Below, piece by piece: positions 19,250-57,031 of a stretch of 64,000 nucleotides of DNA; the stretch's first letter is position 1, and each line of letters starts with the position of its first letter. This stretch comes from Patescibacteria group bacterium (lineage in GTDB: Bacteria > Patescibacteriota > Minisyncoccia > UBA6257 > 2-01-FULL-56-20). The translations under genes were made by a program, and so were the position numbers. The notes beneath the pieces were generated by a model. The model was given only the letters and a program-made list of their open reading frames with translations. It was not told where the DNA came from and ran no database searches. Where the stretch lies: the NCBI GenBank assembly GCA_018971305.1, contig JAGXBC010000003.1, positions 156,325 to 220,324 of the forward strand, read 5' to 3'.

Positions 19250-19368
19250 TATACCCTCCCCTCCTCTTAAAATTTCTACCAATACTGTCCAGATTATAGT
19301 GGCGTAAATACCATATGTCAATAGTATTTTATTCTGTTACAATCTTAAAAAGAGCTGCTGATTATTTA

Positions 19369-20409
19369 ATGTCCATAAAAATATTTACCAAACTTTTTTC
19401 ATGTCTGGCGATAATTGCCCTGCTCGGCAATATCGTTCCGGCGAACGTCCGGGCCGCAACGACAGCCGCACCTTTTAAATACACGCGCATTTTTTATTTT
19501 CGGGATAATGCCTTGGCCCGGCAATCTCTATATTCCTATTATAAATTCATAGATGTGCTTGCGCCGCAGTCTTATTCTTTTGACAGCACCGGGAAGCTCG
19601 TTGACGATATGAATCCAACCGTCTTGGATTTTGCCAAACAGCACAACATAAAAGTGATGCCGCTCGTAACGAACGGTAAGTTCAGCCAAGACGGATATCA
19701 TTCAATACTTGACGATAAGCCCGCGGAAGACGCGGCTATCGCTTCGCTCGTTACCGAGGCGCAAAAAGAAGGTTACTGGGGTTGGCAGATAGATTTTGAA
19801 CAGATGGATGCGTCGTATCGCGATAAGTTTTCGGCATTCGTGAAGAATGCAGCGGATGCAATGAAGCAGAACGGGCTTGTTCTCAGTGTTGCGGTCGTGG
19901 CGAAAGTTTCCGACAACCCGGCAGACTACCCGAATAATCTCTGGCAAAATTTGATCGGTGTCTACGATTATGCGTCTCTCGCTACCAGCACCGACTTCAT
20001 AAGCTTAATGTCTTACGACGATCCGAACTCCAAGGGTCCGGTAGTGCAATATTCCTGGCTGAAACAAGTTTTGGATTACGCTTTGAAATTCATTCCAAAC
20101 GACAAGTTGTCGCTAGGCATCCCTCTCTATTATTGGCAGTGGAATGATGTGACGGGAAAGCGCATCGGTATCGGCGGCCGGGACGGCATTTACTCCGCTT
20201 TCAAAAAACATTACATTACCGTCCATTACAGCGCCAAACACGAGGCGCCATATCTCACCTACTGGAGTTATTCAAAGTCGTACACCATCTGGTACGAGAA
20301 CGCCCAGAGCGTTAAAGCGAAAGTAGCTCTTATAAAAAAATATAAGCTCTACGGTTTCTCGGCTTGGGCGCTAGGACTCGAGCTTCCGAGTATTTACAAT
20401 TCTATTTAA
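19369..20409 (+). CDS. secreted glycoside hydrolase family 18-like protein
   Basis: Signal peptide; GWQIDFEQ segment resembling the GH18 DxDxE catalytic motif. Confidence 0.5.
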   Translation: MSIKIFTKLFSCLAIIALLGNIVPANVRAATTAAPFKYTRIFYFRDNALARQSLYSYYKFIDVLAPQSYSFDSTGKLVDDMNPTVLDFAKQHNIKVMPLVTNGKFSQDGYHSILDDKPAEDAAIASLVTEAQKEGYWGWQIDFEQMDASYRDKFSAFVKNAADAMKQNGLVLSVAVVAKVSDNPADYPNNLWQNLIGVYDYASLATSTDFISLMSYDDPNSKGPVVQYSWLKQVLDYALKFIPNDKLSLGIPLYYWQWNDVTGKRIGIGGRDGIYSAFKKHYITVHYSAKHEAPYLTYWSYSKSYTIWYENAQSVKAKVALIKKYKLYGFSAWALGLELPSIYNSI

Positions 20410-29411: not shown

Positions 29412-30671
29412 TTATTTGGAAATTTCCGAATGCAAAATTTCTATAGCCTTATCGAGCTGCGGATCTTTCCCGGCCGTAGTGTCGCTCGCGTTAAGCGGAA
29501 CTTCGTAATCTGGCTTTAACCCCCCGTTTTCTAAAATGTGTCCGGATGGCAATACCCAGTGAGCAACCGTAAGTTTTATGGAGGAACCATCGCTTAACGG
29601 CATAAGCTGCTGAACCGTCCCTTTGCCGAAACTGGTTTCACCGATAAGCTTGATGTTCCTTTGATCGCGCAAAGCACCTGCCAGAATTTCTGAAGCCGAA
29701 GCCGAACCCCCGTCGATAAGCACCACGGTCGGGAAATCAGCGAGGGCGGCGTTGCCGCTGGCTCTAAATTCCTGATTGGTGCCGCTTCTGCCGGCCTCAC
29801 TCACGACTAATTTGCCGCGCGGTAAAAACCATCCTGCAAGATCAACCGCAACTTCTAAATAACCGCCGGGGTTCCCGCGAAGGTCCAAGATTAATCCTTT
29901 ACTGCCATTCGTAACCGCTTTGAACATAGCTTGATAAAATAGTGAATCGGCGTTGGCGTTAAAGCCGTAAAGCTGGATTTGAGTCAAATCGCCACCGACT
30001 GTTTTTGTATCCAGAGTTGGGATTGCAATATTGCCTCGTGTTATCGAAAAATCTTTAGGTTTATCCCACCCGTCGCGCATAATAGTAAGTTTGACACTGC
30101 TCCCCTCCAGCCCGCGAATGGAATTAACGGCATCGTCAATAGAGATACCGTCGGTGGACGAGGCATCTATCGCCAAGATTGCGTCTCCGGCCATAAGCCC
30201 GGCTTTCATCGCAGGCGTGTCTTTCAGTGGAGCGATAACCACTAATTGGTCGTTCTTTATGCCAAGTTCGGCGCCAATACCTCCAAAATTTCCATCAACA
30301 TTTTCCTGAAATTGCTGATTATCTTTGGGGTTGAAAAATTCCGAATACCTATCGCCCAAAGAATTTACCAAGCCGTTAACCGCTCCGTGAACTTTATCTT
30401 GCGCGCTCGTGCTCGCGTTCCTCAAATAAGAATCATTTATGATCTGCCAGGCCTGCCAGAAAGTATTAAAATTTACGTCCGCGGGTTGCCCCTGGTTAAT
30501 ATTGCTTACCCCTTTTACGAGGATAGTATTTGGAACCTTCTTCCCCTCAGAGAAGCCAAAATAAAAACTGGCGCCCATAGACGCTGCCACAACAACTACA
30601 GCTAAAACAGCCGTGAGAATACGTTTTCTGATCATTGTTATATATTTTAACAGATTTTCAATAGTAATCAA
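29412..30671 (-). CDS. ctpA: carboxyl-terminal processing protease (S41, PDZ domain)
   Basis: PDZ segment (…AGLMAGDAILAID) and S41 catalytic region. An alternative start at 30635 is possible. Confidence 0.85.
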   Translation of the reverse strand: MITIENLLKYITMIRKRILTAVLAVVVVAASMGASFYFGFSEGKKVPNTILVKGVSNINQGQPADVNFNTFWQAWQIINDSYLRNASTSAQDKVHGAVNGLVNSLGDRYSEFFNPKDNQQFQENVDGNFGGIGAELGIKNDQLVVIAPLKDTPAMKAGLMAGDAILAIDASSTDGISIDDAVNSIRGLEGSSVKLTIMRDGWDKPKDFSITRGNIAIPTLDTKTVGGDLTQIQLYGFNANADSLFYQAMFKAVTNGSKGLILDLRGNPGGYLEVAVDLAGWFLPRGKLVVSEAGRSGTNQEFRASGNAALADFPTVVLIDGGSASASEILAGALRDQRNIKLIGETSFGKGTVQQLMPLSDGSSIKLTVAHWVLPSGHILENGGLKPDYEVPLNASDTTAGKDPQLDKAIEILHSEISK

Positions 30672-30742: not shown

Positions 30743-31609
30743 CTAAATAACAGTCTGGAGGCGATCTTCTTTTGTAAATAATCGTCTGACCGTAATAAAT
30801 TCATTACGGCCATTAAGAAGATGCGGTATCGAACAGTTCTGAATGACAAACGATCGGATTTCCTCGGATAAGCGGAATCGCTTGGGATCTTCCACATACT
30901 CCTTCATTTCAGGAGAGATTTTCCGTGGTTTGTCGTCAACCTGGCCAGCGCGTACCAAGTAAAAATCCGAGCACGGTATGTTCCAGTCCGCTGCACCATT
31001 CCTGTAATCTGTGCAAGATTCTCGGAATCCACCAGCGGAAGTAACATCAAAATTTTGGCTTAAAAACCACACCAAAGCCTTGATATTGCCCGCAACCGAA
31101 TATCCACGAACGGAATCGTCGCGCACGAAGAATGCCATCGTATCCCGAAGCGATTTGAATTCTCCTCGGGATTCAATCCGTACGGTGTATTCATTACTGC
31201 CCCGAGCATTATAGATTGTGCACACAGCGCGCACTCTACGCTCTGCTCTATCCAGATAGCGATAGTTCAAACGCACCTGTACTGGACGGAAGGCGTGTTT
31301 ATCAGAAGTGAAAAAGCTTTCAATTTGATCAATCAGCGTTGGCTCCACTGCATACGGCTGATAGAGAAACCATTTAAAAAATGGCGCCTCTCGCACGTAT
31401 TTCGGAAATCTATAGCCATCTTTCCTTCTTTCGCGTAACAGCTCTGCACGAAAGTCGCTTGTGCGCTGGAGCTCTATAACGTTATCCGCTCGCCTAACGT
31501 ACACAGTTATACGACGAGGATCTTTTTCATCATAGCTCCTGAAAATCAATGTTGCTCTGGAAAGATTCTGCTCTTTCAAAGAACGTGCAAGATTGTCGTA
31601 TGGTTGCAC
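30743..31609 (-). CDS. hypothetical Arg-rich protein (288 aa), no recognised domain
   Basis: Long ORF with its own strong terminator; GC content looks slightly higher than in neighbouring genes. Confidence 0.5.
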   Translation of the reverse strand: MQPYDNLARSLKEQNLSRATLIFRSYDEKDPRRITVYVRRADNVIELQRTSDFRAELLRERRKDGYRFPKYVREAPFFKWFLYQPYAVEPTLIDQIESFFTSDKHAFRPVQVRLNYRYLDRAERRVRAVCTIYNARGSNEYTVRIESRGEFKSLRDTMAFFVRDDSVRGYSVAGNIKALVWFLSQNFDVTSAGGFRESCTDYRNGAADWNIPCSDFYLVRAGQVDDKPRKISPEMKEYVEDPKRFRLSEEIRSFVIQNCSIPHLLNGRNEFITVRRLFTKEDRLQTVI

Positions 31610-32292: not shown

Positions 32293-32928
32293 TTATATAT
32301 TCCTCCGCCACTCTTCTATTTTTTTATGGTTACCAGAGAGCAAAATTTTAGGAACAAATAAGTTTTTTCTGCCGGCCTTAAAAACTTCTGGCCTGGTATA
32401 AACTGGATAGGACCCTTTAATCTCTTCCAGTGACTCAGTTTTTCCCAAAAATCCGGGTAAATGCCTGCTAACGGCTTCAGTTAAAACTAACGCAGGCAAT
32501 TCTCCGCCGGAGAGCACATAATCCCCCATTGATATTTCTTCGTCGGCCACATATTTAGCTACGCGTTCGTCTACGCCTTCATAGCGACCGCAGATCAATA
32601 TCAAACGTTCATATTTTGCCAGCCGCCGAGCGATTTTAGAATCAAATTTTTTACCGCGCGTCGAGAAGAGAATAATTCTAGTTTTTAGTTTTGAGCTTTT
32701 AGCCGTGAGAAATCGAATAGCCTTATAAACCGGCTCAATTTTAATAACCATTCCCGGTCCGCCGCCGAAAGGCTTGTCGTCAACCTTATTATGCCTGTCA
32801 GCCGTAAAATCTCTTAAGTTATGGATGCGGACGTCAATCAATTTTTTCTCCCGAGCGCGCTTAATAAGAGATTCGTTCAAGTAGGAATCAAAAATTTTAG
32901 GAAAAATTGTGATGATGTCGAAGCGCAT
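32293..32928 (-). CDS. trmD: tRNA (guanine37-N1)-methyltransferase
   Basis: MRFDIITIFP… N-terminus; trefoil-knot SPOUT motifs. Confidence 0.9.
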   Translation of the reverse strand: MRFDIITIFPKIFDSYLNESLIKRAREKKLIDVRIHNLRDFTADRHNKVDDKPFGGGPGMVIKIEPVYKAIRFLTAKSSKLKTRIILFSTRGKKFDSKIARRLAKYERLILICGRYEGVDERVAKYVADEEISMGDYVLSGGELPALVLTEAVSRHLPGFLGKTESLEEIKGSYPVYTRPEVFKAGRKNLFVPKILLSGNHKKIEEWRRNI

Positions 32929-35568
32929 TTATTCATTGCTTCCATCTGTCGATGAATCTTCGCCGCTCAAGTCGCTGCTCCCGCCATCACCCTCTTCTTT
33001 TTCGGCCAATTCTTCCAGAGACTCTTCTTCAACGAAATCGTCGCGGTCTTCATCTGTGCCGTATAGAGCGGATTTTTCTTGGTCGTCTTCCAAAGATATC
33101 TTCTTTTTCTCGGGCAATATAGTTCCATTCGCATGCGTTACCGTGTCTATTTCTAATTCGTTAGCTCGGAATTCTGTATCGCCGATAGTATGGGGTAAGT
33201 TAGGTGACCGACTATATGTTTCAGGCATAATTTTTTCTTCGGAAAATTTTGTTTTACTATTTTCTTTTTCCGTATCCATATCTCTCCCGTCAACAGCATC
33301 ATAGTAGGACGTAGTCTTTGTCCGATTATTTTCTTCGGATAGGTTTTTTGGGGAGAACCCGTTAGATTCGTGCCTTATATAAGACCCACTATGTTCGGCA
33401 AAAGACCCTGTTTTATCATTTTGAATTGACGGGCGTGCTTCTTCAGTAGGTGGTCTATTACTACCTATGTTTTGTGGTGATATTCTAGCCCGAAAATCTT
33501 TTACGGACACTATTTTTTCTTCAGTTGATTTGGTTTCGTTCACATGGATAACCTTATTTATGGCTTCAACGGCAGGCGTTTTGTTTTCCCTATCATAGTC
33601 GTGAGACCGAGATTCTTTTTGCTCGCCATTGGTATGGGGAACAGAACTTTCCCTTGAATTTTTTTCTTCTTGATTCGACATTACGATGACCACGTTGCCG
33701 ATTTGCGGTTCTTTCTTCTCTATAACTAAAGATTGTTTGATGGCCTCGCGTAACCCAGCAATGTCTATATCCGGTTTTTTAGGAACCTTCGGCTTGAACT
33801 CCTGAGGGTGGGGTCTGCCGAGAACATTTGGATCTTCTCTTGCGGCCGGTACGCTTGGCGGATGTATTGACGTGCCTTTTTCTTTAAATGATTGGGTCGG
33901 CGATTGATCAGTATTTAGAGGGCGCTCCGGAATTCTTGGTACAGAGGGTACAGGCTGAGTAGGATGTGGTGTGGGCGACATCTGCGGTCTGTATTGCGGA
34001 GTACTGCTATTGTTATAGCCGTACTGTTGCTGCTGCTGGGGACGATAATCCCGTTGATCATAAGGCGATCGTCTGTCGCGATCACGATTATCAAAACCAT
34101 CACGCCTGCCAGGATTGTTTCCCATATCGCCCGTTCGCTCATACCTGGCAGAGTCGGACGGACGCCGATCCGGCCGTGGTCTGAAGGATTGGTTATTGCC
34201 ATCTTGCAATGTTTGCCTGAGGGGTCGTTCCCCTTGTCTATCAATTTTTCCGCCAACTATTGTTTCGCTCGCCGCCTGCCACTCCTCGGCAATTTTTTCA
34301 TCAACGATTTTTCTCGGCGTGCTATAACGGGTTCTGGAATTCTGAATAATAACGTCTTTGTGGCTGATAAGCGGGATTTTTTGCGGAGGCAATGTTTCCG
34401 CGGAAAACGGCCTTGAAGCCACGCCGTCTATCATCAGTTTTATATAGATGGTGGCTTTGGCGAGGTTAACGAGATCATTTTGTATAAATTCCGGCATAAA
34501 TTCTTTTTCCAGGAATTCGGCGTCGGCTCCTCCAGTGCGGAAACAGATAAGCGTACCGACGTTTCCAAAAACCGCGTCACGTACTTTTGTGTTTTGTTCG
34601 TTAACCAGCTGGCCTATATATTGATGGGCCAAGGTTAAACTTAACCGATATTTTCTTGCCTCGGACAAAATATTGGCGAACGACTCTGTGGCGAAATTTT
34701 GGAATTCATCCACGTACAGAAAAAAGTCGTTGCGTTGTTCTTCCGGCAAATCAACCCGGGACATCGCGGCGAGTTGTAAACGCGTTATGACCATAGCGCC
34801 CAAAAGCGCGGAATTATCTTCGCCGATCTTACCCTTGGATAGGTTAACGATGAATATTTTTTTATTGTCCATGATCTCGCGCATATTAAGCGTGGAATGC
34901 GCCTGACCAAGAATATTTCTGATCAAAGGATTGGAAACGAATTGTCCGACTTTATTCTGAATGGCAGCAACGGCTTCCGTTTCCAGCCTTTGGGTATATC
35001 TGGCAAATTCATTTACCCAAAAAGCTTTTATTACCGGGTCCTTTAAATTATCAACGATTTTTTTACGATAAGCAGGCTCGGAAAGCATTCTTATTACTCC
35101 TAAGAGCGTGGAGCTCGGATATTCCAAAAGCGCAAGAAGCGTGTTGTTCAGAATATATTCCATCCTCGCCGACCAAACGTCCGGCCAGATTTTTTTGAAA
35201 ACACCCATAATACCCGAAGCAACAAGGTGTCTGAATTCAGTCCCCACTTGTTCTATGGGATTGAAGGCGATGGGGTAATCCATATCAGCAGGATTGAAAT
35301 AAATCACGTCATCCAAGCGCTCTTCCGGCACGAATTCTACTATCTTCTCGGCCAATTCTCCGTGAGGATCAACAACGCCGACTCCGCGGCCGGCTCGAAT
35401 ATCGGCGACGATCATATTCTCCATCATTGTAGTTTTGCCAACGCCGGTTTTTCCGACAACATAAATATGCCGGCGGCGGTCGTCTGTTTTTATTCCAAAT
35501 CTTGTTTTTTGATTCCTGAAATTACAAAAACCGAGCGGTGTTAATTCGGTATTTTTTTTGTCGTTCAT
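32929..35568 (-). CDS. TraD/TraG/VirD4-like P-loop ATPase (coupling-protein-type) with ~440-aa low-complexity acidic/Pro/Arg-rich C-terminal tail
   Basis: Walker A GKTGVGKTT, Walker B LYVDEFQNF, and an LTLAHQYIGQL-type motif. The stop abuts the trmD start. Confidence 0.6.
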   Translation of the reverse strand: MNDKKNTELTPLGFCNFRNQKTRFGIKTDDRRRHIYVVGKTGVGKTTMMENMIVADIRAGRGVGVVDPHGELAEKIVEFVPEERLDDVIYFNPADMDYPIAFNPIEQVGTEFRHLVASGIMGVFKKIWPDVWSARMEYILNNTLLALLEYPSSTLLGVIRMLSEPAYRKKIVDNLKDPVIKAFWVNEFARYTQRLETEAVAAIQNKVGQFVSNPLIRNILGQAHSTLNMREIMDNKKIFIVNLSKGKIGEDNSALLGAMVITRLQLAAMSRVDLPEEQRNDFFLYVDEFQNFATESFANILSEARKYRLSLTLAHQYIGQLVNEQNTKVRDAVFGNVGTLICFRTGGADAEFLEKEFMPEFIQNDLVNLAKATIYIKLMIDGVASRPFSAETLPPQKIPLISHKDVIIQNSRTRYSTPRKIVDEKIAEEWQAASETIVGGKIDRQGERPLRQTLQDGNNQSFRPRPDRRPSDSARYERTGDMGNNPGRRDGFDNRDRDRRSPYDQRDYRPQQQQQYGYNNSSTPQYRPQMSPTPHPTQPVPSVPRIPERPLNTDQSPTQSFKEKGTSIHPPSVPAAREDPNVLGRPHPQEFKPKVPKKPDIDIAGLREAIKQSLVIEKKEPQIGNVVIVMSNQEEKNSRESSVPHTNGEQKESRSHDYDRENKTPAVEAINKVIHVNETKSTEEKIVSVKDFRARISPQNIGSNRPPTEEARPSIQNDKTGSFAEHSGSYIRHESNGFSPKNLSEENNRTKTTSYYDAVDGRDMDTEKENSKTKFSEEKIMPETYSRSPNLPHTIGDTEFRANELEIDTVTHANGTILPEKKKISLEDDQEKSALYGTDEDRDDFVEEESLEELAEKEEGDGGSSDLSGEDSSTDGSNE

Positions 35569-35579
35569 AAAAGTTAGAG

Positions 35580-36851
35580 TTATTCCATGGTCGGCAACGC
35601 CGGGGGCGGTCCGCCTTTACGCGATTCAACCTTTTCCAATTGCGTGGATCCAACTCCCATTATCGGGAAGTGGTAAATGGTAGCTAACTCCTCAATATTA
35701 AGAATAGGTTTGTGGTGATTAAAAACCTGATCACGATATTTTTCGAAAATCACCCTTTTGCGCCAATTAAGCCGTAATTTAACAAACATCCCATGTACGG
35801 CGCGGCACATTGTATTTTTGTCCGGTTTCAGAAGATTAAGATTCTGCGTATTGAATTGCCGGAAAAATCCGGAGATAGAGGCCACGTTGTCACGGCTGAA
35901 TGAATCGCGTTTATCAATGTATAAAAATCTAATCGTTGTCTCAAAGCCAAGTTTCGCAATTTTTTTCTCAATACCTTCAACGACTTCGCGCTGCCCGGGG
36001 GTGAGAAGCAGCATTCTGAAGTTAATTTCATCTCTTTTTTTCTCGGCTTCGGTTGCGGGATGCTCAAAGGGTGAGCGCAAAACTTCTCCGAGGGTTACTC
36101 CTAAGCCCAAAAACCCCGATTTTTTCTTCTTTTGTTCTTCCAGGCCTGTCATTTTTCTTACAAACGCTTCACCAGCTAATCGCCAGTCGTCCCCGGTGGG
36201 CCGAACCATCATTTGTATCCAAATCTGTTCGTCCTCCTTAAGCTTGGATGTGGCTTCCGTTATGGCGGAAATAGTATCAATGCGTCTTTCTTCAACCGCC
36301 TCTTCAAACATAGGATAAGTTCTTATAGGGAAACAATCCGGATTGCGCAAAATCTGTTCCTCGCCGTAAACCTCAATGCTTTTAGTCGGCATGACATGCG
36401 GCATTTGCTTTACGTAATCTTCAACTTCCTTTATTTCCGCTTCGGGATATTGGGCGTAGATTGCCGATTCCATCAAGTTGCGGAATTGTTTTGGCAGGCG
36501 CAGATAAAAATGAGTTTCTCCCGCCGAACCAACTATTTCAAATGACATCCAATATTCAACCTTCCCCTCCCAATATTTCTCCAAGAATCTCAGACCGTAA
36601 GAATAGGGTACGTGCGCTGCGGCGAATATCTGCTCCATGGCCTTCGGAGTTTTCAGGACGTTCTTTGGAACCTTTATTTCCAAAAGCTGCCACCTAATGG
36701 CAACGATAAATTTATATTGGATATAAAGCATCCAAAAATCCCAGAACAAAAAGAAAGCCATCAATGGCAGGGCAAACCACCAAACTTGGCTCCATACGTC
36801 TTTAACGCTTTGAATTAATCCGCTGGTTAATCCGGAAATTACCTGAGGCAT
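35580..36851 (-). CDS. hypothetical membrane-anchored protein (one N-terminal TM helix), upstream partner of the TraD-like ATPase
   Basis: Hydrophobic segment near residues 20-50; 11-nt gap to the ATPase gene. Confidence 0.5.
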   Translation of the reverse strand: MPQVISGLTSGLIQSVKDVWSQVWWFALPLMAFFLFWDFWMLYIQYKFIVAIRWQLLEIKVPKNVLKTPKAMEQIFAAAHVPYSYGLRFLEKYWEGKVEYWMSFEIVGSAGETHFYLRLPKQFRNLMESAIYAQYPEAEIKEVEDYVKQMPHVMPTKSIEVYGEEQILRNPDCFPIRTYPMFEEAVEERRIDTISAITEATSKLKEDEQIWIQMMVRPTGDDWRLAGEAFVRKMTGLEEQKKKKSGFLGLGVTLGEVLRSPFEHPATEAEKKRDEINFRMLLLTPGQREVVEGIEKKIAKLGFETTIRFLYIDKRDSFSRDNVASISGFFRQFNTQNLNLLKPDKNTMCRAVHGMFVKLRLNWRKRVIFEKYRDQVFNHHKPILNIEELATIYHFPIMGVGSTQLEKVESRKGGPPPALPTME

Positions 36852-36913
36852 TATTCTATTATAGAATGTTTTCTAAGAACTGCGTACACCCACCCATCGA
36901 AAGCGATATCTGC

Positions 36914-37942
36914 TTAAGATTCCCTAACTCTGTATCTACCGTCTGATAAACGCTCAAAGTAGTCCTTATTCTGCAAGTTGATGATTACGGTATTAGGCTT
37001 AAAGAACCTTTGTTTATTTACATGTTGAACAACATCATTCGGATGCAGTGGCCCGTTCTTTTTTAGAACCTTTTGGATTACTTCCCGCGCCACTCCTGGT
37101 TCATAACCATGCTCGCGCAGGCCGTACATTCCCCTACCGACAAGAACAAACCTCTCGTCTTTAATAAGTTCGTTGTGAACGGTCGGAGCCAGGGCTTCCT
37201 GCGAACCAAAGGACGTTTCGTTTATAACCTTGGCAATAGATTGAAAATGGAGCGGCTGCCCCGTTTTTCTTAAAACCAAATATATGCGGTCGCGGGTTGT
37301 GGTCGGATTGATTTCCGCCCAATCGCGCAAACCAACATCACCATAGGGATTAGCCCCGATCTTTTTTGTTATATTCAAATAGTTTTCAGCGTGATTTTTA
37401 TTTGCCTTTTCGGTCTTAATAAAATTTGTAAGCAGCGTCTTGTAATCTCCAGACAAAACTTTATTTTTATTGCTCTTAAGATTATCCGCCCAGCCATCTA
37501 TAAAACCGACAGCCGTACGCAGATCGTCTTTGGTTAAATAATAAAATGGGTGGTAGTTTTCATCTTCGGGATAGAAATAAAAAGCCCCGGACGCTTCCAA
37601 AAGAAGCGCTAAATAATTCTTATTAAGTCCTTCGGCAAAATCCGCTCCATACTGGAGCAAGACGTCCTGCCTCATAACACCGCCAGCGTTTTTAAGCTGC
37701 TTCTTGCTTTGATTTAAGATGTGAACGCAAACGGAATTTTTAAGGACCTCTTTATTCAAAAGTCCTAATGCCGATTTTTCTATTTGCCTTACGCGTTCCC
37801 TCGTTATTCCCATCGTGTCGCCGATGGCAGCCAAAGTCTCCCCCTCTCCGGACTTCAAACCAAAGCGGCCGACAATTACTTCTTTTTGCCGGTCGGCGAG
37901 AGAATTGAACAGAGCGTTAATTATTTTGGGGGCTGATAACAT
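36914..37942 (-). CDS. sigma-70 region-4-type HTH protein with a large uncharacterised C-terminal domain
   Basis: N-terminal LADRQKEVIVGRFGL…LAAIGDTMGITRERVRQIEKSAL matches the sigma-70 region 4 HTH; the remaining ~270 aa have no recognised motif. Confidence 0.55.
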   Translation of the reverse strand: MLSAPKIINALFNSLADRQKEVIVGRFGLKSGEGETLAAIGDTMGITRERVRQIEKSALGLLNKEVLKNSVCVHILNQSKKQLKNAGGVMRQDVLLQYGADFAEGLNKNYLALLLEASGAFYFYPEDENYHPFYYLTKDDLRTAVGFIDGWADNLKSNKNKVLSGDYKTLLTNFIKTEKANKNHAENYLNITKKIGANPYGDVGLRDWAEINPTTTRDRIYLVLRKTGQPLHFQSIAKVINETSFGSQEALAPTVHNELIKDERFVLVGRGMYGLREHGYEPGVAREVIQKVLKKNGPLHPNDVVQHVNKQRFFKPNTVIINLQNKDYFERLSDGRYRVRES

Positions 37943-38016
37943 TGTTTATATTATACACCATTATATAAATTAATCAACAATAAGTCAAGTGAGGTCGCTG
38001 GCAGGTTTTGTTTGCT

Positions 38017-38919
38017 TCAATTTCTACTGTTTTTGCCGCTAATTACGATAAGCGCGGGACTGGCTATAAATATAGATGAATAGATGCCCGTTGTTACTCC
38101 GACGAGAAGAGTTAAGACAAAATAACGCAAGTTTATCGGTCCAACAAAATACATAGCGAGCAAGACCAGGATAAGGGTTAAAGAAGTGTTTATGGATCTG
38201 GCTAATGTTTGATTGACGCTCGCATTTATCGTTGCAGAAAAGTCTTCTTTGCCCCGGCCTAACAACAAATTCTCTCTAATTCTGTCAAAAACAACGATAG
38301 TGTCGTGGACCGAGAATCCCATAACTACGAGAAGCGCGACGACGAAATTACTATCAATTTCAATATGTAGAAAATGTCCAAGAATCGCCAAGAGTCCGGC
38401 CGGTATGGCAACGTCGTGAAATAAAGTGATAAGCGTGATGATGCCGTACTTCCAAGAACTTATCGGCCGCTGAACTTTTCTGAAGGCGAAGGCGATGTAG
38501 AAAGAAATTCCCACGAGCACAAGAATAATGGCGATAAGAGCGTTGCGCTTCAATTCCGCACCCACGGATGGTCCAATGGACTGAAAACTCAACTCTTCAA
38601 ACGAAGGAGTTTTATCTTTAACGTTCTGCAAAAATTTCTGATGGTCTGCTTCGCTGATGGCATTCAGACGGGCAAGGAAGGTGCCGTTCGTCAGATCATA
38701 ATTAACCCGAACATCTGAAATTCCCGGAAGAGAAGTGAAAACATTTTCCATATCAATCGCCGTGGGGTTTCCCTGAGAAACCTTGAACTGCCAAAGAGTG
38801 CCGCCGGCAAAATCAATCCCCTCTTTGAATCCAAAAAATAACATCGTGAAAACAGCGGCACCAACGAAGACTCCGGAAATTATAAAGAATATTTTCTTGT
38901 GTCCTACGATATTCAGCAT
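38017..38919 (-). CDS. secF: protein translocase subunit SecF
   Basis: Six-TM SecF topology with the conserved C-terminal TM bundle; follows secD. Confidence 0.9.
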   Translation of the reverse strand: MLNIVGHKKIFFIISGVFVGAAVFTMLFFGFKEGIDFAGGTLWQFKVSQGNPTAIDMENVFTSLPGISDVRVNYDLTNGTFLARLNAISEADHQKFLQNVKDKTPSFEELSFQSIGPSVGAELKRNALIAIILVLVGISFYIAFAFRKVQRPISSWKYGIITLITLFHDVAIPAGLLAILGHFLHIEIDSNFVVALLVVMGFSVHDTIVVFDRIRENLLLGRGKEDFSATINASVNQTLARSINTSLTLILVLLAMYFVGPINLRYFVLTLLVGVTTGIYSSIFIASPALIVISGKNSRN

Positions 38920-38923
38920 GTTT

Positions 38924-40183
38924 TTATTTATTGATTGCTGCGGGTTTGGCGGCAGATTTTTTATCTTTCATAAACACTCTTAGGAATAATCTGGTAGTCG
39001 TGATTGCGCTGAACAAGCTTATTAATACTCCCAGAAACAGAGTTAAGGCAAATCCCTTAACGAAACTGGAGGTAAAGTAGTAAAGAATGATGGCTGTTAT
39101 TATCGTTGAGCTATTTGAATCGCGGATGGAAGGCCATGCGTGTTTGAATCCTTCCTCAAGCGCCGAGGCCTTGGAGAGCCCTTTTTTTAACTCCTCTTTT
39201 ACCCTTTCAAATATAAGAATATTGGCGTCAACTGCCATGCCTATCGTCAAAATGAACCCCGCCAGCCCTGCCAAGCTCATCGTTATGGGTATGATTTTAA
39301 ACACACCGAGGGTAAGCAATATGTAGATAATCAGAGCTAGAGCCGCGAAAACTCCGAGTAAACCGTAATATAAAATCATAAAGAGCATGACGAGCGCGGT
39401 TCCTATAATTCCGGCAATAATAATCTTTCGCAATGAATCTGCCCCGAGGTTCGGACTAATTGTCTGCTGGTTGACCAAAGTCACTGGCGCGGGCAGCGCA
39501 CCGGCATTAAAACGTTCAACGAGTTGTTGCGCCTCGGAAATAGTAAAGTGTCCGGTTATTACGGCTTGGCCGCCAGTTATCTGCTGTTGGACCGTCGGAG
39601 CCTCGATTAAGTTATTGTCCAAAAAAATTGCCAGCGGCTTACCAATGTTTCTTCCCGTAGCTTCAGAAAAAATTTGTGCGCCCTCACTATTGAAAGAAAT
39701 GGAAACTTGCGGGGCATGAGTTGTATTGTCAAAAGTAAGCTGAGCTCCTGTTACGTAGCGGCCCGTTAAATTTGTCGGAATAAAACTTGTGCTGGAGCCG
39801 TTCTGTTCTACTTCGCGGAAATCCAAAAGAGGGGTTTCTCCTATCTGCTTGATGGCATCGCTTATGTTTTTAACTCCGGCAAGCTCTACTATTAATTCGG
39901 CTTTATCGCCGTTGGTCGCAGTGTATACCTGCGGCTCACTAACGCCAAAAAGATTAACACGCTTCTCGATCACATCGCGAAGTCCGTTCACAACGGAATC
40001 TCTATCCCCCTCTGCGACCTGCGCGAGGTCAATCTGGTAAACAAGATGGCTGCCACCGACAAGGTCAAGACCAAGCCGCCACGGCTGCCACTTAGTACCC
40101 AACCATTTCGGGTAAATAAAAACACCGGCTAAGACGGATAGTAAAATAATAATCGTTAAAAATAGGCCAGGATTACGGCGCAT
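38924..40183 (-). CDS. secD: protein translocase subunit SecD
   Basis: Large periplasmic loop plus C-terminal TM bundle motifs. Confidence 0.9.
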   Translation of the reverse strand: MRRNPGLFLTIIILLSVLAGVFIYPKWLGTKWQPWRLGLDLVGGSHLVYQIDLAQVAEGDRDSVVNGLRDVIEKRVNLFGVSEPQVYTATNGDKAELIVELAGVKNISDAIKQIGETPLLDFREVEQNGSSTSFIPTNLTGRYVTGAQLTFDNTTHAPQVSISFNSEGAQIFSEATGRNIGKPLAIFLDNNLIEAPTVQQQITGGQAVITGHFTISEAQQLVERFNAGALPAPVTLVNQQTISPNLGADSLRKIIIAGIIGTALVMLFMILYYGLLGVFAALALIIYILLTLGVFKIIPITMSLAGLAGFILTIGMAVDANILIFERVKEELKKGLSKASALEEGFKHAWPSIRDSNSSTIITAIILYYFTSSFVKGFALTLFLGVLISLFSAITTTRLFLRVFMKDKKSAAKPAAINK

Positions 40184-40683: not shown

Positions 40684-40710
40684 TGTTCGAACGGTTTTGT
40701 TGTGTAATAT
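40684..40710. repeat. 27-nt direct repeat copy A (TGTTCGAACGGTTTTGTTGTGTAATAT)
   Basis: 25/27 identical to the copy at 41152-41178. Confidence 0.7.
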
Positions 40711-40726
40711 ATAAAAACGGCGCCCG

Positions 40727-41065
40727 TTATAGGTGCGCCGCGTATCTTTTAATATCTTCTGATAAATAGACAACTTCTTGAAGACTTATTGATTCTGCCT
40801 CCTTGCCTGTATTTTTTCCAAGTATTAAATCATCAATTGCGCAAAGAAATGCTGGTTTACTCTCAGCCGAGACGCATTTCTCGTAAATATGCAATAGACC
40901 ATCGGACACGGATTCGGAGTTGACGATTATTGTATATACAGCAGTCGACGTCCCTCTTCCACGAGAAATACAAAACGCTTGAACCACGGTCCATATCCAT
41001 TCGGCGAAACCATTACGATCGAGATTGTTTAATTCTTGCGCAGCTTTCTTATCGGCCCAAGACAA
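40727..41065 (-). CDS. hypothetical protein flanked by the 27-nt repeats
   Basis: TTG start preceded by an AAGGAG ribosome-binding site; 112 aa. Confidence 0.45.
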   Translation of the reverse strand: MSWADKKAAQELNNLDRNGFAEWIWTVVQAFCISRGRGTSTAVYTIIVNSESVSDGLLHIYEKCVSAESKPAFLCAIDDLILGKNTGKEAESISLQEVVYLSEDIKRYAAHL

Positions 41066-41151: not shown

Positions 41152-41178
41152 TGTTCGAACGATTTTGTGGTGTAATAT
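41152..41178. repeat. 27-nt direct repeat copy B (TGTTCGAACGATTTTGTGGTGTAATAT)
   Basis: 25/27 identical to copy A. Confidence 0.7.
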
Positions 41179-41185
41179 GGAACAA

Positions 41186-41833
41186 TCAAGCATCCACAAA
41201 TAGGTATTTACCCTCTGTAATAACTTTGATTTTGTCGTTTATCACCTCTAATGCAGAATTATCATCAAGCGCATACATCGGCCCCCTCAGCTTTTTAGCA
41301 AGCCTGGTCAGGTATTTAGTTCTTGCTTTCGGAAAATGTGGGGAGCTGAAGTGGGGTCGGAAGTGGAGACTAACCAATCTAAGGGCTTTTTCTCTTCTGG
41401 GCTCTTCGCCATAATACATCTTGAGCAACGATAAATCAGGACCCGCAACGATGCTCCCCGCACTGATACCAACATAGACCCTCATTTTCAAGAGCCTAGG
41501 CAATGCTTTATCGATTCCTGATTTTCTGATCCAATGCAGTAGGTAAGATGTGTCTCCGCCCCCAAAGAGAATGACATCTGCTTCTTCTAAACGAGGACGC
41601 CAGATTCTTGATTGCGGTGTGGCATCAATATTTAAGATATTTATCTTTCCGAAACCGAGCTTGGCGCAATTATTAAGATCATTAATTAGCCATTTCTTAT
41701 CTCGTGAAGAAATATTTGCGGCCGTAGGAATAAAAACAAGCTTCGCTTTAGAAAATGGTTTTCTCAATAATTTCCTCAGCGACTTCGCTATGGTCTTATT
41801 ACTGATTCCGTTCGAAGTCAAAAGCAATCTCAT
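41186..41833 (-). CDS. pepE: peptidase E-like S51 family dipeptidase
   Basis: LLTSNG, FGGGDT and GISAGS motifs. Confidence 0.75.
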   Translation of the reverse strand: MRLLLTSNGISNKTIAKSLRKLLRKPFSKAKLVFIPTAANISSRDKKWLINDLNNCAKLGFGKINILNIDATPQSRIWRPRLEEADVILFGGGDTSYLLHWIRKSGIDKALPRLLKMRVYVGISAGSIVAGPDLSLLKMYYGEEPRREKALRLVSLHFRPHFSSPHFPKARTKYLTRLAKKLRGPMYALDDNSALEVINDKIKVITEGKYLFVDA

Positions 41834-53461: not shown

Positions 53462-53905
53462 TTATCTTCTTTTCCGCAAAAATTCGCTGACCAATTTACG
53501 CCCGACGGGATTTATCGTATTCGGCGGTTCGCCGGATAAATATTGTTCAATGGTAAACCATTTCCATCCGGAAAATTTTTCCGGTTCCATAAGCTTCGGC
53601 TCCCGCTCAGTTGTGCAAAAAAATATCGGTACGACGTAGCCCTCTTTCGCTCCCGGAATTTCTCCGATAAAATCCTCTATTCTAAAATCGGTCACGCCAA
53701 TCTCTTCTTTAACCTCCCGCCTTAATGTTTCTTCTATTGTCTCGCCGGCATCGCACCTGCCGCCCGGTGTTGTCCAAACAGAAATATCTTTCCATTTTTC
53801 CTTCGTGTAATTTCTTAATCCGAGCAAAATATTGTTGCCCTTAACAATTATCGCCGACGGGCAAATTGAAGTATTCCCGATTTTTGCAAGTTGGTCTTTT
53901 AACAT
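53462..53905 (-). CDS. NUDIX hydrolase
   Basis: Nudix box GGRCDAGETIEETLRREVKEEIG. Confidence 0.85.
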   Translation of the reverse strand: MLKDQLAKIGNTSICPSAIIVKGNNILLGLRNYTKEKWKDISVWTTPGGRCDAGETIEETLRREVKEEIGVTDFRIEDFIGEIPGAKEGYVVPIFFCTTEREPKLMEPEKFSGWKWFTIEQYLSGEPPNTINPVGRKLVSEFLRKRR

Positions 53906-53931
53906 TTACCTGATTCTTTATAACCTACTTC

Positions 53932-54576
53932 CTATTGAGTCGGTTCAAAAGCTGTAAGGCCGTGAACCAGATTATCCACTTCTTCCCATCCTATACGGGA
54001 ATCGTAATTATATCTGGCAGGAAGTGCTAAAACATATTTTGAGTTTTGCCCAAGAACCGAAGGAGGGATAGGCGCGGCACTCACCGCCAGTTTTTCCTGG
54101 AACACAAGATTCCACTCATCCGGAGTAAACACCATAATCGGCATATCTTCGCGCGGAGTGGAATCCGTCCAATCTGGATGCCGAAGTATAATCAACGGAC
54201 CGTGGGTTGTAGGAGTATTATCTCCTGCGCCATCCGTCGACCATCCATCCCAATTTTTCTCTAAAATAGAATAGCCTTTCCAGGAATCGGCAAGCGGAAT
54301 GGAAAATCCATACTGGCTGTTAACATATTGCACGTTTGAATCTTTAACACAGGTGCCACCGACATCTCCAAAAGGCAAATGCGAACCTGGTTCCGGAGCG
54401 CAGTGAAAGCCGCTCGCGCAAACAGGAGCAGTCGTCATGTTGCCGCCGCAACGCTCTCCCTCACCTGCAACATGCGCGAAGGTATTCGTGTTCGCATTCT
54501 TATTTACGAAAATCATATATCCCCCGATGAACACAACAACCGCAACCGATATAACAATTTGTATTTTTTTATTCAT
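53932..54576 (-). CDS. hypothetical secreted protein
   Basis: N-terminal signal/TM; several Cys. Confidence 0.5.
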   Translation of the reverse strand: MNKKIQIVISVAVVVFIGGYMIFVNKNANTNTFAHVAGEGERCGGNMTTAPVCASGFHCAPEPGSHLPFGDVGGTCVKDSNVQYVNSQYGFSIPLADSWKGYSILEKNWDGWSTDGAGDNTPTTHGPLIILRHPDWTDSTPREDMPIMVFTPDEWNLVFQEKLAVSAAPIPPSVLGQNSKYVLALPARYNYDSRIGWEEVDNLVHGLTAFEPTQ

Positions 54577-54622
54577 GTTTCATCATGATAACACGGATTA
54601 AAACTAATTTCAGCACCTTTTC

Positions 54623-55711
54623 CTAATTTTTGATAGTAAAATCCAACTGCTTTCCAGGGATACCTTTGGATTTACCGTATTCGATGGCATCTTTCCAGGT
54701 AGTCTTATCGGAATACCTAATATTGAAATTTTTATCTTTAAAAACAACAATCACTTCATCTTTGCCTGGCTGCCAAAAATGCATGTACCATGGGCCATCG
54801 TTCAGGTATTCCCCCAGTTTTTCTATTTGTTTTTCATTTACCGATACGTCGTTAAGAAACCAATCTTCCATCATATACTTCTTTATAATTTTTAATTTAT
54901 CCAGGATAGCTTTGTCGTTCAAACTGTTCTCAATAATAGTTCCTTGGTAAGAGGCCTCGCCGTTTTCCGGCAACGACAGCGTGCAGAGATCATATCTTTT
55001 CTGGAGCATTTCTACGGTCTCATGAAGTTTGTCGTACTTATCCTTCATATCCTCCGAAAACTCTACGATCTTGTTGATGTTCTCATTTTCCTTCAACCCT
55101 TCCAAAATTTTATCCGTTGCCATTTCTTGTGCCTTATCTCTCGGCAAATTGCGAACCATCTCTTGCAGCTCTTTCTTTTTTTGGTCAAGTAATGTCTTTA
55201 TGTCATCGCACTTCTGCGAATCGTTTTTATCTGTATTCTTATTTTTGTTTTTTAGTTTTAGTCCCAGCCCTCCGGCAACCAAGGCCACGAACGCGACAAT
55301 TCCGGCAATAAGAAAATTTGAATTTCCGGATGCCTGCGTGTTTGTGAGCAGGCCAGGCATAGCCGTTACGCTTGTCGTTGATTCAACTGTGTCAGTGGAG
55401 GACTGCAAAGAAGTTGGGCGGGGAGGAGTGGATGAAACGGAGCGTGGTAAGACCTGTACCGGAGCAGCAATACCCGTAGCCGTAGTATTCTGTGGCAGTT
55501 GAGCGGTCGGATTAACTGAGGAGCTCACACCGGCTGGAGCTGGCGCGCTTGAAAGCATGCTACTTGTAGCTTCTGCTGGTAAACCGGTACTTGTTTGTGC
55601 CTGCGCCAAAAGAACTGGGGCGATTACAAAAGTTGCGACGGATAAGCAAATAGTTTGGTATGGTCTATATTTCACTATAATCAATTCGTGGATACTGAAC
55701 TTTATACTCAC
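54623..55711 (-). CDS. hypothetical single-pass membrane protein with Ser/Thr/Pro-rich extracellular linker and charged cytoplasmic coiled-coil
   Basis: Signal-like N-terminus, central TM segment (FLIAGIVAFVALVAGGLGL), K/E-rich C-terminus. Confidence 0.5.
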   Translation of the reverse strand: MSIKFSIHELIIVKYRPYQTICLSVATFVIAPVLLAQAQTSTGLPAEATSSMLSSAPAPAGVSSSVNPTAQLPQNTTATGIAAPVQVLPRSVSSTPPRPTSLQSSTDTVESTTSVTAMPGLLTNTQASGNSNFLIAGIVAFVALVAGGLGLKLKNKNKNTDKNDSQKCDDIKTLLDQKKKELQEMVRNLPRDKAQEMATDKILEGLKENENINKIVEFSEDMKDKYDKLHETVEMLQKRYDLCTLSLPENGEASYQGTIIENSLNDKAILDKLKIIKKYMMEDWFLNDVSVNEKQIEKLGEYLNDGPWYMHFWQPGKDEVIVVFKDKNFNIRYSDKTTWKDAIEYGKSKGIPGKQLDFTIKN

Positions 55712-56195
55712 AGACCTTTACGCCATCAACCCCTGGTGGATTATTGATAGGAACTAAAACAAATCCATCTTTATCAAAATCAAAAGGCCTGATGCCTTCA
55801 CCGATAGCCGCCGGAACTTCGTGTAAAATAATATTCTTTACGAAACCGTTCTTTAATAAATAATTATTAAGCGTTGGGCCGCTGGACACGAGCGCATCCG
55901 GCTCCAGTGCAAATGCTTCTTCTGGGGAATGTACAACGATATAATCTTTCTTCGGATGGAAATCCCTATCGCCGCTTACTACTATCTTTTTAATTGGCAA
56001 TTTTCCGAACGAACCCAACAATTCTTTGCTATACGCCTGAATAGTATCATATGTTTTCCTGCCGACTATTAATGTTCCGTGCTCCCGGCAGATATCAAGA
56101 AAATTCTGCCACAGATTATCTGGGATAAAATCTTCCCCACCATTTTTTCTGGCGATAAATCCGTCAGATGAAATTACGTTATATAGAGTTAGCAT
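55665..56195 (-). CDS. dihydrofolate reductase-like protein (RibD C-terminal domain family)
   Basis: MLTLYNVISSDGFIA… pattern of the DHFR-like fold. Confidence 0.65.
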   Translation of the reverse strand: MLTLYNVISSDGFIARKNGGEDFIPDNLWQNFLDICREHGTLIVGRKTYDTIQAYSKELLGSFGKLPIKKIVVSGDRDFHPKKDYIVVHSPEEAFALEPDALVSSGPTLNNYLLKNGFVKNIILHEVPAAIGEGIRPFDFDKDGFVLVPINNPPGVDGVKVCEYKVQYPRIDYSEI

Positions 56196-56206
56196 TTCTC
56201 GGATCT

Positions 56207-57031
56207 CTACGGCTGCAAAACACCCTCCGTTTTGCCGTTTATGGAAATTACAACGTTCTGGACAGCGGAAAACTGCTTCAGAGTATTCTCTATCTCATTT
56301 CTGATAGCCGTAACACGGCAGGAGCCGGCGACGGATTGCTGGAGTGCTTGGTTAAAATCAACTTTCGCCGTGCCATTAGCAATCGTTAAGCTCTGAATTT
56401 TTACGCCGGGATTAATACTGGTTAAATATCCCAAATTATCTTCTTCTGCCGTCGGACCACTCAATAATTCCTCAAGCGCGGCTCGCGCCGGCGCCTGAGT
56501 TTTTGGAATCATCCTGTAAGCCGGATACATAACATCACACTCGCTCCCCTGTTCGGCGTACTTGCTGCCGAAAAATACTTTAACTACTTGCGAATCGCTG
56601 GAAGTCGCGGCGAAGCTAATTGGAACTATCACAAAATTTTCGTTCTCCGGCAAACCAGAGGGATTATCTTTGGCGAGTATTATCGTGCCATTCGCGGAAT
56701 CGGGCTGAGCAAAACCAACCACTGCCTCAAACGGAACCGTGCCAGTAGTCATCCAGGCGCCGATAGCCGTCGCGGGCGACGCCCCCAAAACCGTTCCATC
56801 TTGGTCAACTATTTTTACCGGGAACGACCCTTCAAAAAACCAGCTGCCTTTCGCCTGCCCCTTAACGATAATCGGCGAAGAAATAGTATCTTTGGCCTGA
56901 GGCGAGAAAATCTTGGCATCTTCCCCTGTTGGCAACTGGGAAATGATTGGCCTCTTAGGCACCGGCACGAACAAAAGTATTACAAGGAGAACAAAGATTA
57001 CCACCGCAAGAATTATAGCTACTTTTTTCAT
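56207..57031 (-). CDS. GerMN-domain lipoprotein/secreted protein (with Gmad2-like Ig domain)
   Basis: N-terminal TM; a segment typical of GerMN domains. Confidence 0.55.
   Translation of the reverse strand: MKKVAIILAVVIFVLLVILLFVPVPKRPIISQLPTGEDAKIFSPQAKDTISSPIIVKGQAKGSWFFEGSFPVKIVDQDGTVLGASPATAIGAWMTTGTVPFEAVVGFAQPDSANGTIILAKDNPSGLPENENFVIVPISFAATSSDSQVVKVFFGSKYAEQGSECDVMYPAYRMIPKTQAPARAALEELLSGPTAEEDNLGYLTSINPGVKIQSLTIANGTAKVDFNQALQQSVAGSCRVTAIRNEIENTLKQFSAVQNVVISINGKTEGVLQP

Follow-up and report, generated by a model that had tools for sequence, protein, structure and literature searches.

A conserved operon encoding a multi-HTH protein, a DUF8128 membrane protein and a coupling-protein-type ATPase in Paceibacteria-type Patescibacteria

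A 64,000-nt window of the genome of a Patescibacteria group bacterium (assembly GCA_018971305.1, contig JAGXBC010000003.1, positions 156,325 to 220,324; positions below are those of the window) contains three co-directional minus-strand genes. They encode a multi-helix-turn-helix (HTH) protein of 342 aa (gene 1), a DUF8128 membrane protein of 423 aa (gene 2) and an ATPase of 879 aa (gene 3), which is the sole open reading frame (ORF) of more than 520 aa in the window (Table 1). An earlier note on this stretch, made from the letters alone, had described three genes of these sizes, spaced by 62, 11 and 0 nt, and our analysis reproduced all of its coordinates: 62 nt separate gene 1 from gene 2, 11 nt separate gene 2 from gene 3, and the ATG of trmD comes straight after the TAA of gene 3. 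Here, we show that the triad is a conserved operon whose ATPase belongs to the family of type IV coupling proteins (T4CPs) and whose membrane protein is predicted to resemble the N-terminal domain (NTD) of VirB4, and we weigh what such a machine may do.

On sequence criteria, gene 3 is of the T4CP (VirD4/TrwB) type and not of the HerA, FtsK or VirB4 type. Three T4CP families of Pfam score above their cut-offs: T4SS-DNA_transf (53.5 bits, cut-off 20.1; E 2.4e-14), TrwB_AAD_bind (45.2 bits, cut-off 20.5; E 7.8e-12) and TraG-D_C (31.1 bits, cut-off 22; E 2.5e-7). DUF87, the HerA family, scores below all three (27.5 bits), and neither FtsK_SpoIIIE (at E≤0.1) nor the FtsK gamma domain was found by Pfam in gene 3. 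A search of all PDB sequences with a profile of 32 orthologs returned only TrwB (1.4e-7) and DotL (1.4e-6) as significant matches; HerA appeared at E 0.04, and no VirB4 chain and, at E≤1, no FtsK chain was retrieved. With hhalign, the ATPase profile aligned to R388 TrwB over 268 columns (TrwB 117-392; probability 95.8%, E 6.9e-9). This alignment passes the all-alpha domain (AAD) region, where its confidence is low, and approximately 245 aa lie between Walker A and Walker B. Against R388 TrwK (VirB4), only the P-loop aligned, with a probability of 4%. Among the pGO1 proteins, the T4CP TrsK aligned end to end, and the VirB4 protein TrsE just from Walker B to the C-terminal core. The earlier note, which had recognized a TraD/VirD4-like ATPase, was thus right on this point, and the motifs that it picked out (GKTGVGKTT, LYVDEFQNF and LTLAHQYIGQL) are all there and, across orthologs, invariant or nearly so. 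The invariant Walker A, Walker B and RK...Q motifs mark the ATPase as catalytically intact.

Three other identities of the ATPase were considered and rejected: HerA/DUF87, given the weaker DUF87 score, the insignificant PDB match and the lack of a NurA-like neighbour; FtsK/SpoIIIE, given the lack of a Pfam match and of an FtsK chain in the PDB profile search; and VirB4, given that the NTD-like fold resides on a separate protein, that TrwK is matched at the P-loop only and that no VirB4 chain was retrieved. Nevertheless, gene 3 is not a typical T4CP. Walker A begins at residue 39, and no hydrophobic or transmembrane (TM) segment occurs anywhere in the 879 aa; the N-terminal TM domain (TMD) of T4CPs, as far as the protein sequence tells, is lost from gene 3 or was never in it. 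The NCBIfam VirD4-like (CD1115)/TraD models reach at best 57.9 bits against a cut-off of 250. Gene 3 is therefore best described as a T4CP-derived motor rather than a conjugative coupling protein, because it carries the sequence features that define T4CPs but departs from them in the TMD, the genetic context and the NCBIfam equivalog scores.

The C-terminal half of the ATPase is a low-complexity tail with a net charge of -15 over its last 39 aa. In near-full-length orthologs the tail measures ~60-345 aa, and that of the window is the longest (68 orthologs). Most of the 68 ortholog tails carry, close to the C-terminus, a short motif, (V/I)D(I/V)xxLRkAIeeSL, which reads IDIAGLREAIKQSL in the window. 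A CxxC...CxxC element, identified by Pfam as the treble-clef zinc finger zf_Tbcl_2, is present in 24 of the 68, and some other tails end in PGExIKF; the window tail has neither. Examples of tails with the zinc finger or PGExIKF are L073:12841-13437, L068:4718-5167 and the C-terminus of the ATPase of locus L078. In the window, ~260 further residues follow IDIAGLREAIKQSL, very acidic at the end, and imperfect DNA repeats lie in the tail region (33208-33254 and 33490-33536, 70% identity), a hint that this tail grew by internal duplication.

The assignment of gene 2 to DUF8128 comes from the precomputed annotation of homologs at 52-100% identity. This family comprises >2000 clusters at 90% identity and 2764 representatives at 50%, and no paper on it was found in a literature search. 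Each of the best 150 homologs is a stand-alone protein (~270-550 aa); an apparent DUF8128-ATPase fusion in L078 (5242-8292, 1016 aa) was dismissed as an artefact, since the ORF crosses a run of N translated as X. In agreement with the earlier note, the protein has one N-terminal TM helix, seen as a single hydrophobic segment at ~aa 24-46. Its conserved stretches include EELATxxHFP and, at the C-terminus, GxPPxxLP; the ATPase has a conserved N-terminal FGIKxDDRRRH. Approximately five net positive charges directly follow this helix and none precede it, and an N-out/C-in orientation is predicted because the charges flank the helix on its C-terminal side. In an AlphaFold2 (AF2) model of the protein (pTM 0.69, pLDDT 72.5), the large cytoplasmic domain is predicted to fold like the NTD of VirB4: a Foldseek search of the PDB with this model gave 13 significant matches, and all 13 were TrwK. 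The earlier note had regarded gene 2 as a membrane anchor. The TM helix supports this, but the model suggests that the protein is more than an anchor, namely a VirB4-NTD-like platform on the cytoplasmic side.

The sigma-70 region 4 that the earlier note reported in gene 1 was detected far above the Pfam cut-off. It is not, however, the only recognizable part of the 342-aa protein, because a HARE-HTH domain was found at aa 215-277 (E 1.1e-9), and the protein contains at least three HTH-type modules. The NCBIfam model of the RNA polymerase (RNAP) delta N-domain, TIGR04567, also matched (1.2e-6, 28.6 bits), under its 42-bit cut-off. Sigma region 2 or 3 was not detected in the protein. A sigma-70 family sigma factor was rejected as the identity of gene 1 because region 4, without region 2, is joined to a HARE-HTH and further winged helices. 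The RNAP delta subunit (RpoE of Firmicutes), a protein of ~170 aa in which an acidic disordered tail comes after an N-terminal HARE-HTH, was rejected as well, gene 1 having a different layout. The family of gene 1 is very large, with a length fixed at ~343 aa, and a literature search on the combination of sigma region 4 and HARE-HTH found nothing relevant.

The conservation of the triad was analysed in a scan of one genome per species, in which at least 586 genomes contained a DUF8128 relative. The best 80 loci were analysed, and adjacency is counted among those whose contig reaches far enough. These loci come from many Parcubacteria/Paceibacteria lineages and from Magasanikbacteria and Komeilibacteria, with relatives as low as 33% identity and at least two classes of the Candidate Phyla Radiation (CPR). 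The HTH gene lies directly upstream of the DUF8128 gene in 71 of 75 loci (median gap 48 nt, up to 533), and the ATPase gene directly downstream in 67 of 71 (median gap 24 nt); tblastn found additional partial ATPases at contig ends. The co-conservation of the three genes, which the earlier note had named as a check, is thus confirmed. Its emphasis on translational coupling to trmD is not: the two genes do abut in the window, but trmD follows in only 7 of 52 loci, and the conserved partner is secDF on the upstream side (secF in 39 of 57). Median identities to the window proteins in 40 genomes are 68% for the ATPase core, 57% for SecD, 51% for SecF, 42% for DUF8128 and 40% for the HTH protein. 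By this measure the ATPase core surpasses both SecD and SecF in conservation and is under strong purifying selection. Recurrent neighbours within 10 kb on either side of the 80 triads include genes for EF-P, MnmA, DnaK/J, SecA (in 9 loci), FtsA, aminoacyl-tRNA synthetases, NDK and ComEC. To judge from these gene orders and identities, the triad is inherited vertically, in a housekeeping context and under strong constraint.

No sign of a mobile element was seen around the triad. GC content is uniform (0.43-0.45 throughout), no meaningful repeats flank the triad, and the sole tRNA gene lies ~4 kb off, beyond secD. VirB4, VirB6, VirB11, relaxase and TrsD homologs were not found in the window, either by phmmer with R388 and pGO1 references or by Pfam analysis of the larger unidentified ORFs, and no integrase was found there. 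Likewise, neither a relaxase gene nor a mating-pair-formation gene of a type IV secretion system (T4SS) occurs within 10 kb of the triad in the 80 loci. An integrative conjugative element or genomic island was rejected on these grounds: integrase, relaxase, T4SS genes, repeats and GC deviation are all missing. The earlier note had called the module chromosomally fixed and had seen no conjugative element in the window; the uniform composition, the housekeeping neighbours and the spread of DUF8128 relatives over at least 586 species genomes agree with the former, and the 80 loci extend the latter. PADLOC gave isolated domain matches, to mad8 for the ATPase (1.4e-16) and to MzaA for the sigma-4 region (1.1e-6), and none for DUF8128. 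An anti-phage defence system was rejected because these matches cover single domains without partner components.

Table 1. Features of the triad and its immediate flanks in the 64,000-nt window
Feature	Position	Strand	Basis or remark
Gene 1, multi-HTH protein, 342 aa	36914..37942	-	sigma-70 region 4, helical/winged-helix middle, HARE-HTH and C-terminal winged helix
Sigma-70 region 4 HTH, aa 12-60 of gene 1	37763..37909	-	Pfam PF04545, 57.5 bits (cut-off 24.1)
HARE-HTH winged helix, aa 215-277 of gene 1	37112..37300	-	Pfam PF05066, 39 bits (cut-off 25.9); E 1.1e-9
Gene 2, DUF8128 (PF26449) single-pass membrane protein, 423 aa	35580..36851	-	
Predicted TM helix, ~aa 24-46 of gene 2	36714..36782	-	Kyte-Doolittle segment 26-44; AF2 continuous helix 2-51
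Cytoplasmic alpha/beta domain, predicted VirB4-NTD-like fold, aa ~52-395 of gene 2	35667..36698	-	
Gene 3, T4CP-type ATPase without TMD, 879 aa	32929..35568	-	
Nucleotide-binding domain and all-alpha-domain region, aa 1-430 of gene 3	34279..35568	-	aligns to TrwB 117-392, including AAD region
Walker A GKTGVGKTT, aa 39-47 of gene 3	35428..35454	-	G39, G42 and K45 invariant in 32 orthologs
Walker B LYVDEFQNF, aa 284-292 of gene 3	34693..34719	-	D287, E288, F289 and Q290 invariant in 32 orthologs; aligns to TrwB LFIDEL
LTLAHQYIGQL, aa 311-321 of gene 3, ARKYR just before	34606..34638	-	Q316, Y317, I318 and Q320 invariant; aligns to TrwB RKAGLRVVAGLQSTSQL
Disordered low-complexity tail, aa 441-879 (439 aa) of gene 3	32932..34248	-	no Pfam domain; E/S/P/R/D-rich
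Conserved short linear motif IDIAGLREAIKQSL, aa 601-614 of gene 3	33727..33768	-	(V/I)D(I/V)xxLRkAIeeSL
secD-secF, upstream neighbour	38017..40183	-	Pfam; context only
trmD, abuts ATPase stop	32293..32928	-	Pfam tRNA_m1G_MT, 6.6e-50; context, linkage not conserved
Promoter-like TTGACT-17-TATAAT in secF/gene 1 spacer	37960..37988	-	11/12 consensus; best of 8.9-kb region scanned

Compared with known systems, gene 3 is closest to the T4CPs (VirD4, TrwB, TraD, TraG and DotL). It shares with them the Walker A, Walker B and RK...Q core and a TrwB alignment that crosses the AAD region with low confidence, and the triad also has their variable C-terminal tail, which binds adaptors or relaxosome proteins in known T4CPs, and their upstream gene for a DNA-binding accessory protein. 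Unlike them, gene 3 has no N-terminal TMD, never lies beside relaxase or mating-pair-formation genes, is located in housekeeping operons, is highly conserved, stays far under the NCBIfam equivalog cut-offs and is paired with a separate VirB4-NTD-like membrane protein. TraJ of pIP501 is a T4CP without a TMD that is recruited to the membrane by TraI. In both cases, a coupling ATPase without a membrane segment of its own would depend on a membrane protein from another gene to reach the membrane; pIP501-type systems, however, serve plasmid conjugation with a relaxase and a full T4SS, and the partner protein there is not known to be VirB4-NTD-like. In VirB4 proteins (TrwK, TraB and TrsE), NTD and ATPase form one chain, whereas the triad splits the two halves and its ATPase half is of the VirD4 type. 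DUF8128 has its own TM helix, in which it resembles VirB3-VirB4 fusions, and shows no sequence similarity to the VirB4 NTD families. The TrsD-like proteins, which are free-standing, VirB4-N-domain-like and abundant in Patescibacteria (PMC12102498), are similar to DUF8128 in these respects, but TrsD homologs adjoin virB4 and the TrsD of pGO1 has ~227 aa, whereas DUF8128 has ~425 aa and a TM helix and adjoins a T4CP gene. FtsK/SpoIIIE belongs to the same ATPase superfamily and is a membrane-tethered hexameric DNA pump. Its long P/Q-rich disordered region and its winged-helix DNA recognition, placed on a separate protein in the triad, are loosely reminiscent, but gene 3 differs in having no FtsK_SpoIIIE match and no gamma domain. 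Replacement of FtsK by the triad also lost support: gene 3 has no FtsK signature, and such a replacement is unlikely because most Patescibacteria bins are reported to keep FtsK/SpoIIIE (PMC10469934). As for the EccE-EccC pair of the ESX/type VII secretion system (T7SS), the predicted fold of DUF8128 matches EccE much less well than VirB4, gene 3 does not resemble EccC and further T7SS genes are missing.

Our favoured interpretation, which we hold with moderate confidence, is that the operon encodes a vertically inherited, two-piece, membrane-tethered translocation motor of the T4CP type with a core, non-conjugative job. DUF8128, oriented N-out/C-in, would recruit the ATPase and arrange it as a ring beneath the membrane, so that two chains would recreate the VirB4 layout of an N-domain platform and a RecA-like motor, but with a motor of the VirD4 type. 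In the T4SS, the VirB4 NTD forms oligomers close to the membrane and serves as a platform to which VirB3 and the tails of VirB8 bind (PMC9259494). ATP hydrolysis may then drive a polymer toward a conduit in the membrane whose genes lie elsewhere. By analogy, this polymer is probably DNA, because the ATPase is related to T4CPs and their AAD, because a DNA-binding protein is linked to it and because ortholog tails carry zinc fingers. The variable disordered tail, with its amphipathic conserved motif and the zinc finger that a third of orthologs have, could recruit partners or cargo, and the sigma-4/HARE multi-winged-helix protein could provide DNA recognition or autoregulation. Conjugation hardware would thus have been exapted for a core function outside any mobile element.

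Several findings weigh against this interpretation. The operon encodes no channel component; of the 'minimal translocation module' proposed in the earlier note, the T4CP-type motor with a membrane partner stands, and translocation itself is what we infer. The link between DUF8128 and VirB4 is at the level of the fold, from a model of medium confidence (pLDDT 72.5). hhalign of DUF8128 profiles of 20 and 135 sequences against TrwK and pGO1 TrsD gave no sequence signal, nor did a Pfam scan of 104 diverse DUF8128 members (E≤10) or PDB profile searches reveal a VirB4-NTD or TrsD signal. Two loci, L041 and L058, lack an adjacent ATPase gene, with NusA, Tig and ClpP following DUF8128 in L041, and three (L076, L080 and L083) lack the HTH gene. 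In a mirror-tree analysis, partial r was 0.22-0.34 for the triad, not above SecD controls. Independence from a virB4-type T4SS is argued only from phyletic counts on incomplete metagenome-assembled genomes (MAGs; PMC12102498) and from the reported non-essentiality, in a Saccharimonadia strain, of a T4CP homolog that may or may not be an ortholog of gene 3.

The interpretations that compete with the two-piece motor differ mainly in what DUF8128 and the ATPase work with. They may be the coupling sub-assembly of the distal chromosomal virB4-type T4SS, encoded near oriC, that most Patescibacteria possess, which we regard as rather unlikely. The NTD-like fold of DUF8128 would then dock the TMD-less T4CP on a VirB4/VirB3/TrsD complex, for example by mimicking the 'outer' NTD-NTD contacts of VirB4, and the module would feed that channel with proteins or DNA. 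Docking by such an adaptor is plausible because the NTD of R388 VirB4 mediates VirB4-VirB4 dimerisation and the binding of VirB3 and VirB8 (PMC9259494). In addition, T4CPs usually act with a VirB4-based channel, t4cp genes often lie apart from virB4 (PMC12102498), VirB4 is found in 80% of Patescibacteria genomes, and the operon brings no channel of its own. However, T4CP homologs are commoner than VirB4 (2918 versus 2417 of 3035 genomes, many of these incomplete MAGs; PMC12102498). Moreover, the T4SS of S. epibionticum is essential while its cluster contains no recognizable coupling protein and a distant t4cp homolog is reported to be non-essential, the operon lies beside secDF and housekeeping genes and never beside T4SS genes in the 80 loci, and conservation of the ATPase core above SecD and SecF is unusual for an accessory part of a T4SS. 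At the opposite pole, the triad would be a free-standing, T4SS-independent DNA pump that is core and possibly essential in Paceibacteria-type CPR bacteria. We consider this quite unlikely; if true, it would make the triad a candidate motor for ComEC, pulling in DNA for nucleotide scavenging, or a device for chromosome or DNA export, and the split into VirB4 N-domain and VirD4 motor would keep or recreate an intermediate between the two ATPase families of the T4SS.

A second question is whether gene 1 is part of the machine at all. DUF8128 and the ATPase may form the machine by themselves, with the HTH gene a mere syntenic neighbour that encodes a general RNAP-associated transcription factor, a doubtful but quite conceivable arrangement. 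Sigma region 4 and the delta-type HARE are both modules that interact with RNAP or promoters, the family is very large with a length of ~343 aa, and three loci retain the pair without the HTH gene. The HTH/DUF8128 spacer is also wider than the DUF8128/ATPase spacer (medians of 48 and 24 nt, the former reaching 533 nt), and the mirror-tree signal does not exceed controls. The regulatory role that the earlier note gave to gene 1, a protein of three or more HTH modules, is putative. Furthermore, gene order in this clade may simply be conservative, because secDF too is kept nearby (39 of 57 loci) without an obvious functional tie. Yet an adjacency of 71 of 75 exceeds that of secF and of trmD (7 of 52), and none of the loci showed a second copy of the HTH gene. 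In conjugative systems, moreover, the T4CP gene classically comes directly after one for a DNA-binding accessory protein: R388 trwB is preceded by a gene for a small accessory protein, presumably TrwA. That the motor moves proteins rather than DNA, either as an export or insertion helper tied to SecDF or as a T7SS-like combination of an EccE-type scaffold and an ATPase of the FtsK/HerA superfamily, appears improbable. It would account for secDF directly upstream in 39 of 57 loci and SecA nearby in 9, and both DotL and the VirD4 proteins of effector systems recruit proteins via C-terminal tails, with which the variable tail of gene 3 and its conserved linear motif could be compared. Against it, FtsK_SpoIIIE- or EccC-type domains and WXG or other T7SS genes are lacking, the best matches of the ATPase include the DNA-binding AAD family of TrwB, the tightly linked gene 1 encodes a DNA-binding multi-HTH protein, and ortholog tails contain treble-clef zinc fingers. 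Least credible, and very improbable in our view, is the idea that the triad was left behind by an integrated element, conjugative or mobilisable, or that it defends against phages. ATPases of this family typically occur in conjugative elements, and the weak PADLOC matches (mad8 1.4e-16, MzaA 1.1e-6) point to defence, but the latter cover single domains whose partner components were not found. In addition, DUF8128 relatives are spread over at least 586 species genomes, the operon lies among housekeeping genes, purifying selection on the ATPase core is very strong, and neither genes for a relaxase, an integrase or VirB4 nor att-like repeats or a deviating composition were found.

Orphan T4CPs have been described in Patescibacteria before: T4CP homologs are present in 2918 of 3035 genomes and VirB4 in 2417, virB4 is close to just 148 of the 5713 T4CP genes, and exaptation of orphan T4CPs is suggested by the authors (PMC12102498, 2025). 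They detected no T4SS-like partner beside these T4CPs; in the part of Table S3 of that paper considered here, the T4CP rows lack an adjacent T4SS component and no TrsD call lies beside a T4CP. What our analysis adds is a VirB4-NTD-like partner and a conserved HTH-DUF8128-T4CP operon, together with the predicted fold of DUF8128, the high conservation of the motor, the tail motifs and the near-universality of the operon, beside secDF, among the Paceibacteria-type lineages sampled. Much of bacterial diversity belongs to the Patescibacteria, and according to the 2025 survey almost all of them carry 'orphan' coupling-protein genes whose role is unexplained. One such orphan T4CP is not alone; in the Paceibacteria-type lineages sampled, it is linked to DUF8128 and a multi-HTH gene. 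DUF8128 thereby gains a testable function as the membrane platform of a TMD-less T4CP, and the operon offers three specific proteins for reconstitution as a complex, a probable example of conjugation machinery that reduced-genome symbionts have domesticated for a core function, and a bearing on how the VirB4 and VirD4 ATPases relate. The same part of Table S3 distinguishes two kinds of T4CP calls, single 't4cp1' calls with high profile coverage and paired 't4cp2' calls, the members of which lie 1-6 genes apart with ~62-64% coverage. The 't4cp2' type may be another unexplored ATPase module.

Upstream of gene 1, the 74-nt spacer to secF contains overlapping near-consensus sigma-70-like sites on the minus strand (37950-37988), TTGACT-17-TATAAT and TTGATT-16-TATAAT. 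The counts of promoter-like and terminator sites in the 8.9-kb region are no higher than the shuffled expectation, with only TTGACT-17-TATAAT standing out. A promoter at this site is only suggestive, and the pair suggests that the triad may have its own promoter and a very short leader. Downstream of trmD lies a gene for a LigT/ThpR-like phosphoesterase (Pfam). In 13 of the related loci, ComEC (Competence and DUF4131 domains) is encoded 3-5 genes downstream of DUF8128 (e.g. L001:11613-13906), and in some of these, including L001, a metallo-beta-lactamase-like gene follows ComEC. A link to DNA uptake suggested by this proximity is possible but unproven.

Farther from the triad, a minus-strand ORF of 288 aa (30743-31609), without a Pfam match or a homolog in the 80 related loci, lies between the LigT-like gene and a 419-aa ORF (29412-30671) that by eye alone looks like an S41/Ctp-type peptidase. 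On the other side, a 34-nt direct repeat (40684-40717 and 41152-41185, 85% identity) occupies two intergenic regions, each copy shortly past the stop codon of an ORF on the minus strand (40727-41065 and 41186-41833), and the second also upstream of the 40727-41065 ORF; the repeat may be a shared regulatory or terminator-like element. Some taxonomic labels in the databases look unreliable: two homologs (P0022 and P0276), 60-72% identical to window proteins, are labelled 'Nanoarchaeota archaeon', and many MAGs titled 'uncultured Candidatus Saccharibacteria bacterium' (L004 and other loci) carry Paceibacteria-type loci. Finally, a minus-strand run at 53900-61600 encodes proteins that begin with a hydrophobic segment and are predicted to be secreted or located at the surface. 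It includes a CAP/SCP domain protein (57756-58649), a Germane/Gmad2 protein (56210-57031) and several members without a Pfam match (54626-55711, 53935-54576 and 60607-61515). Together with an M23 peptidase (9621-10943) and a GH18 chitinase-like protein (19315-20406) elsewhere in the window, these are candidate host-interaction genes.

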